In this document: positions 2,212 to 37,721 of the stretch, piece after piece | How the letters are laid out: each line of letters begins with the position of its first letter | Numbering within the stretch: the first letter of the stretch is position 1 | Sequence record: NC_052663.1 | Direction: 5' to 3' (one strand) | Source: Escherichia phage VEcB | DNA: 64,000 nucleotides | Notes under the pieces: generated by a model | What the model saw: only the letters and a program-made list of their open reading frames with translations | Database searches by the model: none | What the model was told of the DNA's origin: nothing | Made by a program: the position numbers and the translations under genes

Positions 2212-4625
2212 TGGCGAATTTTCCAACATATCCTGCTACGACACTAGAACAAGGTGTTGATCTGGTTATATTCTCGTCTAACCAGATGCATGATGTTATT
2301 AATGGAGATGCTACAGCAACTGTAGAAACCGAAACAGGTTTAATACCTACACTGCGTAAAGCACTTGTTGATAACTTCTTCTTTAAGAGTCCTGTTGCTT
2401 GGTCAGCAGGATCAACTGAAACTGTATTTAACCAGTTACGTTATTTTGAAAACGGTATCTTGAGTGGGTACTATTATGCCCCATCTGCCACTACTGCGAA
2501 CCCTGTACCTATGCAGGGCACACCTGTAGGAGACAGTAACTGGACTCTGTACGCTCTTAAAACTGAACAGTTAGCTTCAGATGTGTATCCTTGGTATTTT
2601 AAAGGTGCTACAGGATATGAAACAGAAATCAGTCCTCCTTATATCTTTGATAATGCTATTGTCACCATTAACGGTGTAATTCAGATTCAAGGTGAAGCAT
2701 TTACTATCAGAGATAGTAAAATTATTCTGGCAGAACCATTAGGTTTAGATCCGTCTACTGGTCTACCTAACAAATTGTTTGCTTTTATTGGTAAAACAAC
2801 AGCCTCTACTTCTTACGTAGAGAAAAACCTTTTGTCATCTACCACTGGTGCAGCAATGGTTGGTCTTCCATCTGGAGGCAACCTGTTACAAGCTCAATAC
2901 TTTGTAACGCCTGAGCAGTTTGGTGCAATTGGTGATGGAGTTACCGATGATACTCAAGCAATTTTAAAAACTATTACTTTCGCTAACACGAATAACATTC
3001 AAGTACGTGCAGATAAGAATTATAGATTCACAAGCTCAATTGCTATGTCTGGTATTCGTTGGTATGGTGGTACATTCACTGGTAACGGTGGAACAATGAT
3101 TTCTACTGTGTCCTGTTGGATGGAAAACGTTCGCTTTGAAAAATGTTATGTTAAGATGTTAGGTGGTGATTGCCGATTCTATCGTAATATCTTCTCCAAC
3201 GCAACATCTACAGCAGCATTCTTAATGCAAGCAATGACAAGTGAAGGTACGTTGGACTTCAGTTACAACGAAATGTATGGTTGTAAATATGCGATCCTGC
3301 AACAAGGTACTGGAGAAGTAATGACCTATGGGCGTTACTCTAACAACTATATTCACGATATCAAAGGTGATGCTATTGAACTTAACGTAGTTCAAAAACA
3401 CTACACTGAAGGTTTGATTATCGAGAATAACCACATTGCTAACGTAGATGCTTCTGGACAAGGGGCAAACTGGGGTATTGGTATTGGTGTAGCAGGTAGT
3501 GGCCCATATGGTGTTGATGTTCCTGATTCACAATATGTACGTAATTTCAGTATCGTTGGGAATAGGGTTTACAATTGCCGTCAATGTTTACACGTTGAAA
3601 TGGGTAAAAACTTCACAATACGTGATAATGAAGTTTATCCTAACACAGCAGTTTCAACAGGTACAGGTTTAACTACTTGTGGTGTTGCATTATACGGATG
3701 CCAAGATTTTGAAGTTGATGGTTTAACTGGTTATCTGCTCAATGATCCTTCTGTTTCAACACGTATGGTCTTTATTGACTGGGGTGTTAACAGTGGAAGA
3801 TATGCGGGGCCACCAATTAACTTTACAATTAAGAATTTGGATATTCCAGAATCTTCAATTGAGATTGCAACATCTGGATCAGATGCCTGGGAAAACTCTA
3901 CAATTGTTAGTAATATCAATTGTAATGTTTTTAAATGGCGTGGGCTACCATCTAGCTCTACCTTTAATAATATTCGTTGCCGTAGTATTGACTTTATTGG
4001 TCAACACGGAAGCGGAGAAGGAAGTGGTGGCGGTTTCTATACTCGCAGCCAATTCACGTATATGAAGTGGGTAGGATGTACAGCACTTAGCGGAGATGAA
4101 ACAACAGTTTCTTTTGCTAAAATCTACACTGATCGTTGCGATCAGGTTGGAAATAACTTTGGTGTTCCAACTGCTGTTGATGGTACAGGTCATCGTGGGC
4201 CAGTTTTAACTACTATTTCTGAACAATATTTTACAACTTATGATGAATTCCCAGGTGGGCGTGAATTCCCTACTGGAACAGTTATTCATTGTGCAAGCGG
4301 TAAAAAACATGTTGTTACAGTAGGTGGTGCTTTCTTTAGTGCCAACGAGAAAATAAAAGCAACTGTTACAGGTCAAACCTATCTACAGTCTAATGCTTTA
4401 AACTGGGCTAGTAATGGCTACGCTAAAGCAGCAGGTACTAAAATTGTTATTCCAGGTGCAGGTGCAAATGGCGGCGATCTTGTGACAACTATAGCACGTG
4501 CTACATATGTGACAAATAGTTTGTACACAATAGATATTGCAGATCCAATTGTAACACCTACAGCAGAGAATACACAAATCAAAGCTCTGAACCCTGTTAC
4601 TTTTGTTACTGTCAATAATGCTTAA
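2211..4625 (+). CDS. Tailspike / depolymerase with right-handed beta-helix (pectate-lyase-like) domain
   Basis: 804 aa; motif QFGAIGDGVTDDTQAILK typical of the N-terminus of pectate-lyase-fold beta-helices; repetitive G/N/T-rich beta-strand-like sequence; hairpin terminator downstream. Confidence 0.65.
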   Translation: MANFPTYPATTLEQGVDLVIFSSNQMHDVINGDATATVETETGLIPTLRKALVDNFFFKSPVAWSAGSTETVFNQLRYFENGILSGYYYAPSATTANPVPMQGTPVGDSNWTLYALKTEQLASDVYPWYFKGATGYETEISPPYIFDNAIVTINGVIQIQGEAFTIRDSKIILAEPLGLDPSTGLPNKLFAFIGKTTASTSYVEKNLLSSTTGAAMVGLPSGGNLLQAQYFVTPEQFGAIGDGVTDDTQAILKTITFANTNNIQVRADKNYRFTSSIAMSGIRWYGGTFTGNGGTMISTVSCWMENVRFEKCYVKMLGGDCRFYRNIFSNATSTAAFLMQAMTSEGTLDFSYNEMYGCKYAILQQGTGEVMTYGRYSNNYIHDIKGDAIELNVVQKHYTEGLIIENNHIANVDASGQGANWGIGIGVAGSGPYGVDVPDSQYVRNFSIVGNRVYNCRQCLHVEMGKNFTIRDNEVYPNTAVSTGTGLTTCGVALYGCQDFEVDGLTGYLLNDPSVSTRMVFIDWGVNSGRYAGPPINFTIKNLDIPESSIEIATSGSDAWENSTIVSNINCNVFKWRGLPSSSTFNNIRCRSIDFIGQHGSGEGSGGGFYTRSQFTYMKWVGCTALSGDETTVSFAKIYTDRCDQVGNNFGVPTAVDGTGHRGPVLTTISEQYFTTYDEFPGGREFPTGTVIHCASGKKHVVTVGGAFFSANEKIKATVTGQTYLQSNALNWASNGYAKAAGTKIVIPGAGANGGDLVTTIARATYVTNSLYTIDIADPIVTPTAENTQIKALNPVTFVTVNNA

Positions 4626-4629
4626 TTAA

Positions 4630-4652
4630 AAAGGGGCGAAAGCCCCTTTATA
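4630..4652 (+). terminator. Rho-independent terminator after the tailspike gene
   Basis: GGGGC-GAAA-GCCCC hairpin then TTTA-rich tail. Confidence 0.5.
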
Positions 4653-4666
4653 AAAGGAGTAGTAAA

Positions 4667-6628
4667 GTGATTTTAACACGTCCAAATAGTGCCATTGCAG
4701 ACATGGTAGAGTCTCGCTATAGAAAGCGTAGAAGTTTTGCAAGTGGTTTTACCTTAAGAGATGCTCGTGAAGCATTGCTCTTTGAAACTGACGGTAACTA
4801 CTATCAGTGGAAAGGTTCTCTACCTAAAGTTGTACCTGCTAACTCTACTCCTACATCTACTGGAGGGATTTCAGATACAGCTTGGAAAAATGTGGGTAAT
4901 GCAGATGACATTGCTCAAATAGAATCAGAATTAGATGCTATTGAAGCTGAAATTGAAGATCTTAGAGAATCCATTCCAGAAGCTGGTAAATCAGCTTACC
5001 AGATTGCCGTAGACAATGGTTTCCAAGGTGCTGAGACAGACTGGTTGGCTTCTTTAAAAGGTGATCCAGGTGCTCCATTAAAGCTGCTAGGGACGCTATC
5101 TAATACCAACCAATTACCTACAACCGGAAACAATGCAGGAGATGCATGGATTGTAGGAGAAAATATGTATGCTTGGGATGGTACTGCTTGGAGAAAAGTA
5201 AACTCACAGGGGCCAGAAGGTAAATCAGCTTATCAAGTTTGGCTTGCAGCAGGAAACCAAGGTACAGAACTAGATTATCTTGCTTCAATTAAAGGTGATA
5301 AAGGGGAACCTGGCCCAGAGGGGCCACAAGGTGTACCAGGTAACAATGCTAATGGTTTTGATTACCAAGGTGCAGCTAATTCCGTTTCAGATCTTCCTTC
5401 TGCATCTCCTGGAAACACATCTCAAGCATGGAGTATTGGTACATATCTATACGTGTCAAACGGTGTAGAATGGATCAATATGGGCGCTATAGTGGGGCCA
5501 AAAGGAGATAAAGGCGACAAAGGAGATAAGGGTAACACTGGTGATTCAGCTTATCAAGTCTGGTTAAACGCTGGTAACGTTGGTACTATTGACGAATATA
5601 TTGCCTCTCTGAAAGGAGAAAAAGGTGATAAGGGAGACAAGGGTGATCAAGGTGAGCAGGGTATACAAGGCTTGACGGGGCCAACTGGTGCAGGGTTGAC
5701 CATTATTGATATTCTGACTGACACTTCTGAACTACCACAAACTGGAGAAGATGGTGATGGTTATCTGATCAATAATGAACTTTGGGTTTGGTTGCAAGGA
5801 GCCACACAGTGGACAAATGTTGGTCGTTTAGCTGGTACTCCAATCACTGCAAAAGGACACGTTGCGTCTGCAAGTGCACTTCCTCCTACATCCAATTACG
5901 GTGATGCTTATCTAACGGAAGACACAGGTCATCTTTACATTTACACCTATGATGAACAAACTCAAACTGCTGAATATGTAGATATGGGTAGTTTGAAAGG
6001 TGATAAGGGTGAGAAAGGTGACGCTGGTACTAACGGTACGGATGGTGCAACTTGGATTGTTAAAACAACAGATCCAATCTCTAGTGATGGTAAACAAGGT
6101 GATTATGCCTTTAATATCTCCACTGGCGAGGTGTTCTTAAAAACATCTGCAACTGTCTGGACTTCTCAAGGTACACTACCTAGCATCACAGATGCACCTA
6201 GTGACGGTAAGATCTATGCTCGTAAAGATGGAGCATGGGAAGAACTAACTAGTTCTGTAGATGGTCAAGATATAGTTCCAACAAAAGTAACAGCTAATTT
6301 TATAGAGGTTACAGCATACACCAACAACTCTGTTATAGGTGACTGGACACCTCCAGGAACACATAACATGAATGTGTTGAATCTTACTGGTAACGCTACT
6401 ATAAAAGCATGGCCTGGTGTCGAAGATAGCACAAAACCTAAACCATTCTCTGCAATAGTTTATCTTATCCAAGATGCCACTGGAGGTCGTACTGTTACTT
6501 TAGATCCATCTTACAAAGTAATTGGTTCTAGTGATATTAATACAGATCCTAACGGAGTAACAATACTACAACTAACATATTGTGGTGTTGGCAATTACGT
6601 GGATGCTATTGTTGCTAAACGCACATAA
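4667..6628 (+). CDS. Tail fibre protein with collagen-like Gly-X-Y tracts and three copies of a ~35-aa repeat
   Basis: GTG start with AAAGGAG RBS; GDKGDKGDKGNTGDS, GEKGDKGDKGDQGEQGIQGLTGPTG; repeat SAYQ(I/V)..G..GTE.DYLAS(L/I)KG(D/E) present three times. Confidence 0.6.
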   Translation: MILTRPNSAIADMVESRYRKRRSFASGFTLRDAREALLFETDGNYYQWKGSLPKVVPANSTPTSTGGISDTAWKNVGNADDIAQIESELDAIEAEIEDLRESIPEAGKSAYQIAVDNGFQGAETDWLASLKGDPGAPLKLLGTLSNTNQLPTTGNNAGDAWIVGENMYAWDGTAWRKVNSQGPEGKSAYQVWLAAGNQGTELDYLASIKGDKGEPGPEGPQGVPGNNANGFDYQGAANSVSDLPSASPGNTSQAWSIGTYLYVSNGVEWINMGAIVGPKGDKGDKGDKGNTGDSAYQVWLNAGNVGTIDEYIASLKGEKGDKGDKGDQGEQGIQGLTGPTGAGLTIIDILTDTSELPQTGEDGDGYLINNELWVWLQGATQWTNVGRLAGTPITAKGHVASASALPPTSNYGDAYLTEDTGHLYIYTYDEQTQTAEYVDMGSLKGDKGEKGDAGTNGTDGATWIVKTTDPISSDGKQGDYAFNISTGEVFLKTSATVWTSQGTLPSITDAPSDGKIYARKDGAWEELTSSVDGQDIVPTKVTANFIEVTAYTNNSVIGDWTPPGTHNMNVLNLTGNATIKAWPGVEDSTKPKPFSAIVYLIQDATGGRTVTLDPSYKVIGSSDINTDPNGVTILQLTYCGVGNYVDAIVAKRT

Positions 6629-33644: not shown

Positions 33645-34115
33645 TTAGTCAGATTCCCAAATGTTGTCTTTCTTAACCCACATTCGTTGATTATCTGAAC
33701 CTCTATAACGTTTCGTTGTTGGTTGAGTCATATCATACTTACCATCTATTACTATGTCAACCAGTTTTTTAATTTTCTCTGGAATTTCTTCAAAAAGATA
33801 TCCTGTATATAAGACAATATCTTTTTTGTTTCCAAAACAATCTCTTACCTTCTCAAGAACATACTCTACAGTGTCAATGTTCTCTTTGTCAAGAGGTTCA
33901 CCACCTAAAACTGTTAATCCTTTAATGAAAGGTCGAGATAAATCTTCCAAGATAAGATCTAATGTTTCAGTAGTGAACTCTTGTCCGTAGTTATACGACC
34001 AGGCTTTCTGGTTGAAGCAGCCACGGCAACCGTGGCTACAACCGCTCACCCACAAAGAGCATCTTACACCGTCACCGTTGAGCATGTCAACAGGTTCATA
34101 TCCGGCGTAATTCAA
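33645..34115 (-). CDS. nrdG: Anaerobic ribonucleotide reductase activating protein (radical SAM)
   Basis: Cys cluster CSHGCRGC near N-terminus; 156 aa; directly downstream of nrdD; TTG start with RBS. Confidence 0.65.
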   Translation of the reverse strand: MNYAGYEPVDMLNGDGVRCSLWVSGCSHGCRGCFNQKAWSYNYGQEFTTETLDLILEDLSRPFIKGLTVLGGEPLDKENIDTVEYVLEKVRDCFGNKKDIVLYTGYLFEEIPEKIKKLVDIVIDGKYDMTQPTTKRYRGSDNQRMWVKKDNIWESD

Positions 34116-35050: not shown

Positions 35051-35083
35051 ACACATTATGTTCAAAGTGGCTCGCAAGGCCAC

Positions 35084-35814
35084 TCCCGCACCATTACGTG
35101 CTGCTGCATGTCACCATGCAGATCAGACTATATCTTCATGCTTAAAGCATGTCTACCATTTGGGGTGTCATAGGCTTACACCCTACGCTGCTACATTCAT
35201 CACAGCTAGTCGTTAGGCATTTCGTAACAGAACTCATAATCATAATTATTTGGTGCTCCGCGCTTTAAGATTGCAGATATTCTTTTTCTGTCCAACCCTA
35301 AAGCGTCAGCACAACATCTCAGACTTTTAAAGTAAAAAACTTCACCAGTAGCCTTATGAGTAGCTTTTACACTGTGACACCTTGTGTAGAAAGCATAACA
35401 GTTATTATCGTAACCCTCTTGCGTGTTGTCTGGACAAGATCCCCACTCAAGATTGTATACACTGTTGTCTTTCCTATTGTCACCTTTATGCTTCACATAA
35501 GGTAAATTGTCTGGATTGGGTAAAAACGCTTCAGCTACAAGTCTGTGCACCCGAAAGCAAACAGTTTTCTTGTTTTTACGTATTCTGACAAGTTGGTATC
35601 CTGTGTTTATTTCTTCCCACGAGCGAAGGATTCTTTCATCCTTATACCTGGTACAATAAACATTTCCAAGCTCGTCAATTTCATACCCTTCAAAATCACG
35701 AATTTGTTTTCTCATATCAGTACCCCCCTTCTTCTGTGTTGGGAGTTCTGTTACGTTTAGCACGGGATTGTCTCGTTGAGAGTTCCCCCGTTTAGGCAGA
35801 TTTTACATGAGCAG
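35084..35814 (-). mobile_element. Group I self-splicing intron interrupting nrdD, carrying an HNH endonuclease ORF
   Basis: nrdD is split into two same-strand ORFs; intervening RNA (minus strand) begins ...CUGCCUAAACGGGGGAACUCUCAACGAGACAAUCCCGUGCUAAACG, closely resembling the conserved core of T4-type group I introns; boundaries approximate. Confidence 0.6.
35206..35715 (-). CDS. Intron-encoded HNH homing endonuclease
   Basis: HNH-type motif HRLVAEAFLPNP...HKGDNRKDNSVYNLEWGS; start at internal ATG with AAGGGGGG RBS; lies within the nrdD intron. Confidence 0.6.
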   Translation of the reverse strand: MRKQIRDFEGYEIDELGNVYCTRYKDERILRSWEEINTGYQLVRIRKNKKTVCFRVHRLVAEAFLPNPDNLPYVKHKGDNRKDNSVYNLEWGSCPDNTQEGYDNNCYAFYTRCHSVKATHKATGEVFYFKSLRCCADALGLDRKRISAILKRGAPNNYDYEFCYEMPND

Positions 35815-36681
35815 TTATAGTTTACCCATGCTTGTGACGCGACCATCTGAAGATCCTGTAACTTCTTTGTTTAAAGGTACAGAGATAAAATCAGGATAAA
35901 TGCGTTCAGCACAACACTCCATTGCCAGTTGCTTCAAATCATAATTTGGATCGCCAGCTTTCATGTTAACACCATCTTCCAAGAAGAAGATAACTTTAGG
36001 AAACACAGGAGTTACCCTATCTTTTCCTAATCCTTGTTTGTGCACCATTAGGTAGTTTTTAGTGATCATTCTACCAAAAGCAGAGGTATCCAAACCTAAA
36101 CTAATTGTTATAAAAGGTGACTGACCATTTACACTCATTAGGGTGTTCACCTGGTAGATTAAAGTTTGCATTGCATCATAGACCTGTTTATCTACCATAC
36201 GCATAGCAATATCATAATCGCCAACATCGGCATATATTTTATTAAAACTTGCTTTAACGTATTGACTAAGCCCAGTATCAACATGTGCACAAGTTTGTCC
36301 ACCATATTGGCTAGAAGCTACTGCTTGAATAATTTGAGTTAGGACAGTAGTTGCTACACCAATAGATTTTGGTTTTTCAATATGTGCATTACCAATACGG
36401 AAACCGTTCTCAAGCATATCTTGGTAATTTACCAGGCAACAATTAGTTAAAGGTGAGAGTAAATAATCTAAATCGTGGATGTGACCATACCCACTTTTAT
36501 GCCATTCTGCTAAATCTTCAGGCAAAATATGGGTCATTGCCATGTGCTTGCTTAGGATACCTGCTAGTAAATCTCGGTGAGTATTAACAATCATTGCAGG
36601 TTTGTTTGCATTTTCACGAGTAAATTCTTCGGATGTTTGTTCGAGGAATCCGATTACATCCTCATATAGTTTTTGGGTCAT
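35815..36681 (-). CDS. nrdD: Anaerobic ribonucleoside-triphosphate reductase, 5' exon (N-terminal half); true exon end is the 5' splice site a little upstream of the in-frame stop
   Basis: Start at ATG with GGAGG RBS (MTQKLYEDV...); exon 1 plus exon 2 total about 600 aa. Confidence 0.65.
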   Translation of the reverse strand: MTQKLYEDVIGFLEQTSEEFTRENANKPAMIVNTHRDLLAGILSKHMAMTHILPEDLAEWHKSGYGHIHDLDYLLSPLTNCCLVNYQDMLENGFRIGNAHIEKPKSIGVATTVLTQIIQAVASSQYGGQTCAHVDTGLSQYVKASFNKIYADVGDYDIAMRMVDKQVYDAMQTLIYQVNTLMSVNGQSPFITISLGLDTSAFGRMITKNYLMVHKQGLGKDRVTPVFPKVIFFLEDGVNMKAGDPNYDLKQLAMECCAERIYPDFISVPLNKEVTGSSDGRVTSMGKL

Positions 36682-36699: not shown

Positions 36700-36724
36700 A
36701 AAAGCCAGCATTAAGCTGGCTTTA
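36700..36724 (-). terminator. Terminator upstream of nrdD
   Basis: GCCAGC-ATTAA-GCTGGC hairpin followed on the minus strand by TTTTATTTT. Confidence 0.5.
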
Positions 36725-36770: not shown

Positions 36771-37721
36771 TTAGTCAAGGTTTTTGGTAATACGTGTACA
36801 ACCGTCAGAAGTCAAACCGTCAACTTGAGTTTCCCAAGTGCCATGAATATTTCGGAACAATGTTGTTACACCTTTTGGTTCATTAATAATGATTGCCATA
36901 ACAAGTTTAGGATCGATAACAGACATAATCTTTTCCTCAATACCCTCTGTAATAACATTATTACGCACAATATTAATTACATCTTCTTGTACAGTAAGAG
37001 TGCTTACGTTCTTAAGAGTATATACCTGCTGCGTAGTGTAAATGATACGAACATAGCTTACAGAACGAGTAGGCACAGGTTTACGCGGTCGGCGAAAACG
37101 TGGTTTTGGTGAAGATTCAGTCTTACTTTCATTTTTTGAATAATACTCCTCAAACAGTTTAGTAAATGTTTTTACATCAACTACAAACCGATCTTTCCTA
37201 TATGGAGAATACTTATGTGCACCATTAATTCCACTGTTTTCATCAAAGAAAGTAATATTTTCTTCAGTTGAATATGTTAGATAATGGTCTGCATCTTTCC
37301 AATGTGGTTGTGGACAATGCGGATTACAAACGGAAAGCAGATAACTAATATCTTCTTCCGTTGCACTAGTATCCAGGAAACATGTATTATGCACAGACAG
37401 TTCTACTTTTTCAACCATATCCTTTTCTTTATCCTCTTTGGCAAGATACTCAGTACGAATAATATCCAGAAAATCTTTAGGTGTTACTTCCATAAATGTA
37501 TATTCAGGGTGAAGTTCCATATATTCAAATCCACAACCATCTAATTGCTGTAGGAAGTTAGGATAGAAGAACAAGTCATTAACACTATGAATCAGATCAT
37601 TGATTTCTGCTTCAGATGTGTAACCAAAACTCTTGTGAATTGCTTCATTAAGAATATGCAGGATACCCATCTCTTCTGCTGCTTTTTTAACTTCCAGTTT
37701 ATTAGCGTAAAATGCAATCAT
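36771..37721 (-). CDS. Hypothetical protein
   Basis: ORF track; AAGGAG RBS. Confidence 0.4.
   Translation of the reverse strand: MIAFYANKLEVKKAAEEMGILHILNEAIHKSFGYTSEAEINDLIHSVNDLFFYPNFLQQLDGCGFEYMELHPEYTFMEVTPKDFLDIIRTEYLAKEDKEKDMVEKVELSVHNTCFLDTSATEEDISYLLSVCNPHCPQPHWKDADHYLTYSTEENITFFDENSGINGAHKYSPYRKDRFVVDVKTFTKLFEEYYSKNESKTESSPKPRFRRPRKPVPTRSVSYVRIIYTTQQVYTLKNVSTLTVQEDVINIVRNNVITEGIEEKIMSVIDPKLVMAIIINEPKGVTTLFRNIHGTWETQVDGLTSDGCTRITKNLD

Follow-up and report, generated by a model that had tools for sequence, protein, structure and literature searches.

A group I intron with an I-HmuI-like HNH endonuclease reading frame in the anaerobic ribonucleotide reductase gene nrdD of a phi92-like coliphage

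Results

The nrdD locus and the boundaries of the insert

The DNA analysed here (the window) is a stretch of 64,000 nucleotides from Escherichia phage VEcB (NC_052663.1), a phi92-like Justusliebigvirus (Stephanstirmvirinae) whose sequence in this region matches that of Escherichia phage arall at 99.0% identity and that of phi92 at about 99%. Two open reading frames on the minus strand match the Pfam family NRDD (profile length 562) and abut at profile position 263, with the upstream frame covering positions 1-263 (E 9e-73) and the downstream frame covering positions 263-562 (E 7e-86) as well as matching Gly_radical (E 6e-26). The upstream frame is colinear with the uninterrupted nrdD of phage Antha from the start of the coding sequence (MTQKLYED), and it reads three codons into the insert that separates the two halves before ending at a TAA (35817-35815). 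A reading of the insert as an intein was ruled out by these in-frame stops three codons after exon 1. On the downstream side, the TTG start of nrdG overlaps the nrdD stop. The features of the locus are listed in Table 1.

Table 1 Positions of the nrdD exons, the intron, its structural elements and neighbouring features in the window
Feature	Position	Strand	Description
nrdD exon 1	36681-35824	-	286 codons; ATG at 36681 after GGAGG; 3' end ...AGC ATG GGT
Group I intron, subgroup IA type	35823-35054	-	770 nt; begins AAACUAUAACUGCUCAUG, ends ...GAACAUAAUG; terminal G at 35054
P10, intron strand CUAUA	35820-35816	-	partner UGUAG, exon-2 bases 1-5 (35053-35049); read from the sequence
Internal guide sequence GCUCAUG	35812-35806	-	P1 with exon-1 CAUGGGU (35830-35824); U.G at the splice site
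5' core	35800-35760	-	P3, P4, P5 and P6 5' strand
P3, 5' strand UCUGCC	35800-35795	-	3' strand GGUAGA at 35157-35152
P4, ACGGG/CCCGU	35791-35787 with 35766-35762	-	
P5, UCUC/GAGA	35781-35778 with 35774-35771	-	
P6, GC/GC	35761-35760 with 35218-35217	-	
P6a, 5' strand CGUAACAGAACUC	35755-35743	-	with GAGUUCUGUUACG (35235-35223), inside the 3' end of the ORF; perfect 13-bp complementarity
Hairpin ACUCCC...GGGGGU	35746-35722	-	occludes the ORF Shine-Dalgarno sequence GGGGGG (35728-35723); ATG at 35715
HNH homing endonuclease ORF, I-HmuI-like	35715-35206	-	169 aa, 510 nt; stop overlaps P7 5' strand
3' core	35218-35054	-	P6 3' strand through P9.2 and the terminal G
P7, GACUA/UAGUC	35211-35207 with 35130-35126	-	pseudoknot with P3
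P7.1	35206-35202 with 35191-35187	-	
P7.2	35183-35178 with 35168-35163	-	
P8	35151-35146 with 35142-35137	-	J8/7 is AAGAUA
P9	35121-35104	-	GUGA loop
P9.1	35101-35088	-	
P9.2	35085-35065	-	
nrdD exon 2	35053-34112	-	313 codons and stop; first codon Cys287 (TGT); glycyl-radical domain
nrdG (activating enzyme)	34115-33645	-	Pfam Fer4_12 and Radical_SAM; context only

Alignment with the intron-less nrdD of Antha shows that the insert is exactly 770 nt of additional sequence, located in phase 0 between codons 286 and 287 (...AGC ATG GGT | TGT AGA AGT TTC...). This places the predicted splice sites at 35824|35823 and 35054|35053, with a predicted ligated junction that matches uninterrupted alleles exactly. 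A first-pass annotation of this DNA had given the intervening segment as 35084-35814 (~730 bp), coordinates that it conceded were not resolved splice sites and that correspond to open reading frame limits. Its assignment of two nrdD halves (36681-35815 and about 35050-34112) is upheld by the NRDD matches, with the inner ends of both exons corrected by the Antha alignment to 35824 and 35053. It had also proposed aligning the predicted spliced NrdD to intact homologs, which yields a protein of 599 aa that is colinear with the uninterrupted protein.

The intron is located directly 5' of the codon for Cys287, splitting the motif MGCRSFL as SMG|CRSFL. This residue aligns with Cys290 of T4 NrdD, which, from the literature on the T4 NrdD structure, we take to be the active-site thiyl-radical cysteine. 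Homing elements typically insert at the most conserved, catalytically essential codons of their host genes.

A group I core of subgroup IA type

Scanning the whole window against Rfam at the gathering score returned no group I match. When matches with E-values up to 0.05 were admitted, the window copy gave a local match to RF00028 that covered the 3' half-core only (39.3 bits, E 2.9e-08, gathering cut-off 50), and the 510-nt open reading frame within the P6a loop is the likely reason that this copy falls under the cut-off. The ORF-less intron of phi92 (279 nt), with a core about 100% identical to that of the window, scored 70.6 bits against the same cut-off (E 8.5e-17); in the Rfam check that the first-pass annotation had suggested, it is this natural variant, rather than the window copy, that exceeds the gathering score. 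In both copies, Rfam aligns the J8/7-P7-P9 stretch to the group I consensus.

A full secondary structure comprising P1 through P10 was built by hand and then checked on the alignment described below; in the window copy, no core helix is disrupted. The intron terminates in ...AAUG, with the omega-G at a position set by the intron-less allele. Presence of both P7.1 and P7.2 between P7 and the 3' strand of P3 is a hallmark of subgroup IA. The HNH reading frame, previously described as free-standing, is instead intron-encoded; it occupies the loop of P6a, where relatives without the reading frame have a short hairpin, and its 3' end doubles as one strand of each of three helices (3' in P6a and P6, 5' in P7).

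The resemblance to T4 td/nrdD-type introns noted in the first-pass annotation holds, and the core-like RNA string that it quoted is present on the minus strand at 35799-35754, falling in the 5' core. The T4 nrdD (sunY) intron is 70% identical to the window intron over 184 nt, or 79% of the ORF-less core (E 3e-20), has an identical guide sequence (GCUCAUG) and shares P7.1 and P7.2, whereas the T4 td intron matches only the J8/7-P7-P9 stretch. The insertion site of the window intron is not that of the T4 nrdD intron.

Covariation across related introns

Evidence for the fold was obtained from an alignment of 14 introns, consisting of those of the window, Vequintavirus JEP1, Avunavirus 24-2-1, Vibrio phage F99 and T4 along with nine from IMG/VR contigs. 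Searching IMG/VR with a pattern that combined the guide sequence and P4 gave seven loci, and 5' halves were then collected with an nhmmer profile. Standard base pairs occupy 93.3% of the pair cells in this alignment, a share that falls to 34-42% once the 3' partners are shifted by 1-3 columns, and both sides have changed in 44 of the 67 pairs. The covariation score of 0.528 exceeds that of the shifted partners (at most 0.103) and was reached by none of 500 shuffles.

Across the 14 introns, P1 is 99% paired with the splice-site U.G present in 13, P3 is 100% paired with compensatory changes at five of its six pairs, and P4 (98.6%), P6 (100%), P7 (100%), P8 (98.8%) and P9 (98-100%) are similarly well paired. 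In phage 24-2-1, one P7 pair is C-G in place of U-A. The two helices that define the subgroup, P7.1 and P7.2, are each about 98% paired, with compensatory changes at 4/5 and 4/4 pairs, respectively. Pairing in P9.1 and P9.2 reaches 84-88%, and all seven pairs of P9.2 show compensatory changes; together with P3, P7.1, P7.2, P8 and P9, P9.2 is rich in such changes. Support is weaker for inner P5 and for P10, which forms 5 bp in the window and is only 62-75% paired across the family alignment.

These data bear on whether nrdD is truly split, with its halves translated separately and assembling without RNA splicing, as reportedly occurs for nrdA of Aeromonas phage Aeh1, which is split by mobE. The end of the exon-1 reading frame three codons into the insert would fit such an arrangement, as would the presence, at 35086-35075 upstream of exon 2, of a GGAG and, after five bases, a TTG; the annotators of phi92 called a separate downstream coding sequence with a GGAG ribosome binding site, and two nrdD coding sequences are annotated in many GenBank records. 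Nevertheless, the putative ribosome binding site and start reside inside P9.2, where every pair has been compensated, and the GGAG is not conserved, for example in T4. Separate translation also gives no role to a complete, covarying group I core, and the break would fall within MGCRSFL, directly before the cysteine that aligns with T4 Cys290. We consider a truly split gene very improbable.

The same evidence weighs against the insert being a splicing-dead relic in an nrdD pseudogene. That the host has its own NrdD is compatible with loss of the phage gene, with nothing specific in favour of this reading. Both exons in the window are intact and, outside the junction, about 99-100% identical to the uninterrupted allele, the core helices are likewise intact, and the same intron has been kept with compensatory changes in many phages. 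A dead relic is therefore scarcely credible, and the arrangement at this locus is best described as a group I intron from which an intact NrdD would be restored by splicing.

An I-HmuI-like HNH endonuclease encoded in the P6a loop

The intronic reading frame matches PHROG 59 ("HNH endonuclease") with an E-value of 1.9e-34, while its Pfam scores fall slightly under the curated cut-offs (22.0 vs 24.8 for HNH_3 and 25.4 vs 27 for a NUMOD-like domain). With phmmer, residues 3-166 of the 169 align with I-HmuI (PDB 1U3E, 174 aa; E 8.3e-09). An AlphaFold model built with 25 homologues has a mean pLDDT of 90.1, and a Foldseek search of the PDB with this model returned 1U3E as the sole significant match, over the full length of the protein (E 1.7e-11, probability 1.00, 176 aligned columns, TM 0.56). 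The phmmer and Foldseek alignments together cover the I-HmuI architecture of an N-terminal beta domain, the HNH motif and a C-terminal helix-turn-helix DNA-binding module.

Residues that are invariant in the family are kept in the window protein, including H57, H76, N88 and N97, of which H76, N88 and N97 are invariant in the 25 homologues. The residue preceding the catalytic histidine, which is aspartate in I-HmuI (Asp74), is lysine in the window protein. This lysine was considered as a mark of a dead enzyme and set aside, since among the homologues this position is occupied variously by N, K, M or D.

The endonuclease nonetheless has to be weighed against a reading in which the ribozyme is functional while the HNH gene is decaying, or is mobilised only in trans, and the intron is a vertically inherited passenger. 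The Pfam scores below the curated cut-offs would be in keeping with decay, as, more weakly, would the lysine in place of aspartate. The reading frame is intact with all family-invariant residues present, its predicted fold is confident and I-HmuI-like, and the variability of the position before the histidine removes much of the force of the lysine; further evidence on this point comes from the distribution of the intron, presented below.

A GGGGGG Shine-Dalgarno sequence is located 7 nt upstream of the ATG of the endonuclease and lies within a hairpin that is the minimum-free-energy fold of the segment (z = -3.3). In the JEP1 copy, the equivalent hairpin (ACUCCU...AGGAGU) is present with its pairs changed. 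T4 intron endonucleases are regulated in a like manner, by an occluded Shine-Dalgarno sequence (PMC2988022), and translation of the window endonuclease may be held in check by this hairpin. Scans for sigma-70 promoters and terminators around the reading frame gave counts no higher than those in shuffled sequences. Neither tblastn nor a motif scan detected a paralogue of the endonuclease in the window, which also yielded no tRNAs.

Allelic states and recent movement of the intron

Three states of the nrdD locus exist within a single genus: intron-less, intron only, and intron with the reading frame. An uninterrupted nrdD of 1800 nt is found, for example, in Antha, muut and Paula, the full insert in arall, SD2, phiWec187 and the window, and a short insert without the reading frame in phi92 and others. 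The reading frame has been deleted in phi92 and in pEC-M2929 (290 nt) with different breakpoints, indicating two independent deletions, and these ORF-less introns look like later stages of the homing-endonuclease life cycle. The 286|287 site is also occupied by introns in JEP1, 24-2-1 and Vibrio phage F99. IMG/VR yielded 106 distinct 3' halves of introns of the same type, of which 62 run into an open exon starting with Cys-Arg.

The Phapecoctavirus phages nieznany, nepoznato, 536P1 and DIJ07P2 carry an intron 99.4-99.6% identical to that of the window within nrdD exons that are only about 83% identical. When the window and Phapecoctavirus copies are compared in 50-nt bins, identity is 56-86% in exon 1, ~100% in the intron and 98% over the initial 50 nt of exon 2, beyond which it drops to 76% and 52%. 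Positions +1 to +38 of exon 2 in nieznany are of the Justusliebigvirus type, with nine markers (+3 to +33) that differ from the intron-less Phapecoctavirus P3322; the sequence is back to the Phapecoctavirus type from about +54, and exon 1 already differs from the window at -7. A near-identical intron in divergent exons, accompanied by a tract of donor-type exon 2, points to a recent cross-genus transfer, and the sequences indicate that the intron moved very recently into Phapecoctavirus from a Justusliebigvirus-like donor. As read from these markers, co-conversion appears to have been asymmetric, reaching 33 nt or more downstream of the insertion site but no more than 6 nt upstream, which would fit cleavage on the exon-2 side.

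Among the three coliphage genera compared, exon 2 of intron-bearing alleles starts TGT AGA AGT, and intron-less alleles have TGC CGT AGC, TGC CGT AGT or TGC AGA AGC, with the encoded amino acids unchanged. The T at position +3 of exon 2 completes P10. The intron-less junctions GGT|TGC CGT AGC/T and GGT|TGC AGA AGC are candidate cleavage targets of the endonuclease. A search for intron-less alleles with the full set of intron-type exon-2 codons, the signature of precise intron loss, found none, with one-piece matches reaching at most 95.7% identity.

These comparisons return to the question of a decaying or trans-mobilised endonuclease gene. Two independent losses of the reading frame in close relatives are what would be seen late in the homing-endonuclease life cycle, in keeping with decay. 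On the other hand, copies 99.4-99.6% identical in another genus, along with a co-conversion tract of donor type, imply a transfer too recent to sit easily with a vertically inherited passenger. We regard a non-functional or passively carried endonuclease gene as unlikely, and favour an intron mobilised by its own enzyme.

Discussion

The first-pass annotation had proposed that nrdD contains a group I intron harbouring an HNH endonuclease, and this is corroborated by the exact absence of the insert from intron-less alleles, the Rfam match of the phi92 copy, the covariation of the core and the I-HmuI-like reading frame. In our assessment, nrdD is very likely interrupted at 286|287 by a mobile intron that belongs to group I, subgroup IA type, and encodes an I-HmuI-like HNH homing endonuclease of its own.

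Following transcription, the intron RNA would fold into the P3-P9 core, with the guide GCUCAUG pairing with the last seven bases of exon 1 to form P1 and leaving the splice site with a U.G wobble. P7 would bind an exogenous guanosine, which would then attack the 5' splice site, P10 (CUAUA with UGUAG) would align exon 2, and the terminal G at 35054 would mark the 3' splice site, such that exon ligation would produce the 599-aa NrdD. During a mixed infection, the endonuclease would nick or cut an intron-less nrdD near the insertion site, and repair from an intron-bearing genome would introduce the intron along with part of exon 2.

Several known systems help to place this element. The phi92 nrdD intron (RefSeq NC_023693) comes from the same genus and occupies the same site, and apart from the deleted segment its ribozyme is about 100% identical to that of the window. 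In RefSeq, phi92 nrdD is already entered as a coding sequence in two pieces, labelled "spliced variant" (PHI92_gene_192A). The phi92 intron differs in lacking the reading frame (279 nt), whereas the window carries the complete form (770 nt). I-HmuI, encoded by a group I intron within Bacillus phage SPO1's DNA polymerase gene, is likewise a phage-intron enzyme of comparable length (174 vs 169 aa), but it is only about 25% identical to the window enzyme and differs in host gene, target and host phylum. HNH intron enzymes of the I-HmuI type nick one strand (PMC2988022), and by analogy the window enzyme may do so as well. HNH endonucleases in group I introns at conserved sites of ribonucleotide reductase genes are also represented by I-TevIII of the RB3 nrdB intron and by the nrdE introns of phage Twort (PMC2988022, PMC3653736), which are in other subunits and at other sites than the window intron; I-TevIII is reported to be a dimer that makes a double-strand break (PMC1865063).

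Judged by their sequences, the T4 nrdD intron and the window intron belong to one ribozyme lineage; they share a host gene but differ in insertion site and in endonuclease. The T4 intron is inserted within codon 180 of T4 NrdD, after ...UAUGAGU, as opposed to 286|287 in the window; projected onto the window NrdD, the T4 site falls at about residues 172-175, more than 100 codons upstream of the window site. The T4 intron carries the GIY-YIG enzyme I-TevII in the loop of P9.1, in contrast to the HNH enzyme in the P6a loop of the window intron. Both 5' exons end in AUGRGU (AUGAGU for the T4 site within codon 180, AUGGGU for the window site following codon 286), and this shared end, along with the common guide sequence, would be compatible with transposition between the two sites by reverse splicing. 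We tentatively raise the possibility, with somewhat less than even confidence, that one T4 sunY-type ribozyme lineage colonised two nrdD sites, perhaps by guide-directed reverse splicing, and that the endonucleases were then acquired independently.

Group I introns with homing endonucleases are well known in phage ribonucleotide reductase genes (PMC2988022, PMC3653736), which are recognised intron hot spots, with nrdD the ribonucleotide reductase gene most often split in phages (PMC3653736). A literature search found no paper analysing the nrdD intron in Justusliebigvirus or Phapecoctavirus. The window intron is a real, recently mobile element of a well-known kind, and it leaves the understanding of group I introns unchanged.

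Its consequences for annotation are practical. Most GenBank records of these therapeutic-candidate coliphages file nrdD as two fragments and a hypothetical protein; in the records of arall and nieznany, for example, the reading frame between two nrdD fragments is a "hypothetical protein", while the JEP1 record labels the corresponding frame "HNH homing endonuclease, Phage intron". The correct annotation would be one spliced nrdD encoding 599 aa and an intron-encoded homing endonuclease, and the records of arall, nieznany and similar phages need to be fixed accordingly.

In addition, the availability of empty, ORF-less and complete alleles, together with a recent transfer, makes this locus a convenient system in E. 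coli phages for studying homing by an HNH enzyme with putative nicking activity. If colonisation of two sites did take place, phi92-like phages would offer a natural view of the full homing-endonuclease life cycle. A role for an intron in phage competition has been reported for PhiPA3 (PMC11620839). If the proposed homing is correct, there may be intron-mediated competition between co-infecting coliphages, and the nrdD intron could serve to ask whether such introns act in phage competition here, as with PhiPA3.

Intron insertion before the catalytic cysteine codon in uncultured viruses

Among the 106 distinct 3' halves of introns of the same type as the VEcB nrdD intron that were harvested from IMG/VR (loci L011-L134), 62 are followed by an open exon beginning with Cys-Arg, with the exon starts reading CRTA, CRTY, CRSF, CRAF or CRAY. 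Because so many of these 3' halves precede a Cys-Arg exon, the site immediately 5' of the NrdD catalytic cysteine codon is an intron hot spot that is widespread among uncultured viruses. The introns that occupy it belong to no fewer than two lineages that differ visibly.

In L077 (IMGVR_UViG_3300045988_015623), the 5' exon ends in AUGGGC, which places a C-G pair at the P1 splice site instead of the near-universal U.G wobble; the copy could be defective, or the difference could be a sequencing variant. In L030 (IMGVR_UViG_3300018411_000044), two intron 3' cores of this type lie about 1.1 kb or less apart, at about 3500-4900, and could belong either to a pair of adjacent introns or to a twin arrangement.

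Annotation of introns, flanking genes and host

The 209-aa database protein of protein cluster P0002 is an annotation artefact arising from unrecognised introns; its open reading frame was called from the intron 5' core into the HNH open reading frame of the Vequintavirus-type copy. Naming is also uneven for the 316-aa open reading frame upstream of nrdD, which is called "ribonucleotide reductase" in some RefSeq records of the relatives and "hypothetical protein" in others. The GenBank records MG0656xx, entitled "Campylobacter phage" (A145, A110a, A150, C3, A142 and others), state C. jejuni as the host. These records contain either an nrdD that is approximately 99% identical to that of phi92-like coliphages or an rV5-like (Vequintavirus-type) intron copy, and both their name and their host assignment look doubtful.

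Gene organization and further interruptions of nrdD

Signals flanking nrdD in the VEcB window are listed in the table below, together with interruptions in related phages. The overlap between the nrdG start and the nrdD stop codon suggests that translation of the two genes is coupled.

Features around nrdD in the VEcB window and additional nrdD breaks in relatives
Genome	Feature	Position	Strand
VEcB window	316-aa open reading frame upstream of nrdD	36771-37721	minus
VEcB window	Terminator-like hairpin followed by T-run, immediately 5' of the nrdD ribosome-binding site	36701-36723	minus
VEcB window	nrdG TTG start overlapping the nrdD stop codon (TTGA)	34112-34115	minus
Vequintavirus JEP1 (L005)	First nrdD intron, with 177-aa open reading frame, between window residues 186 and 187	1-1200	
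Avunavirus 24-2-1 (L007)	Second nrdD break, near residues 439-447	1930-2200	
Vibrio phage F99 (L008)	nrdD in several fragments, plus a second HNH gene	1-1200	

As the lower rows indicate, JEP1, 24-2-1 and Vibrio phage F99 carry extra nrdD breaks at other sites. In total, nrdD seems to be interrupted at no fewer than four sites, including the site used in T4.
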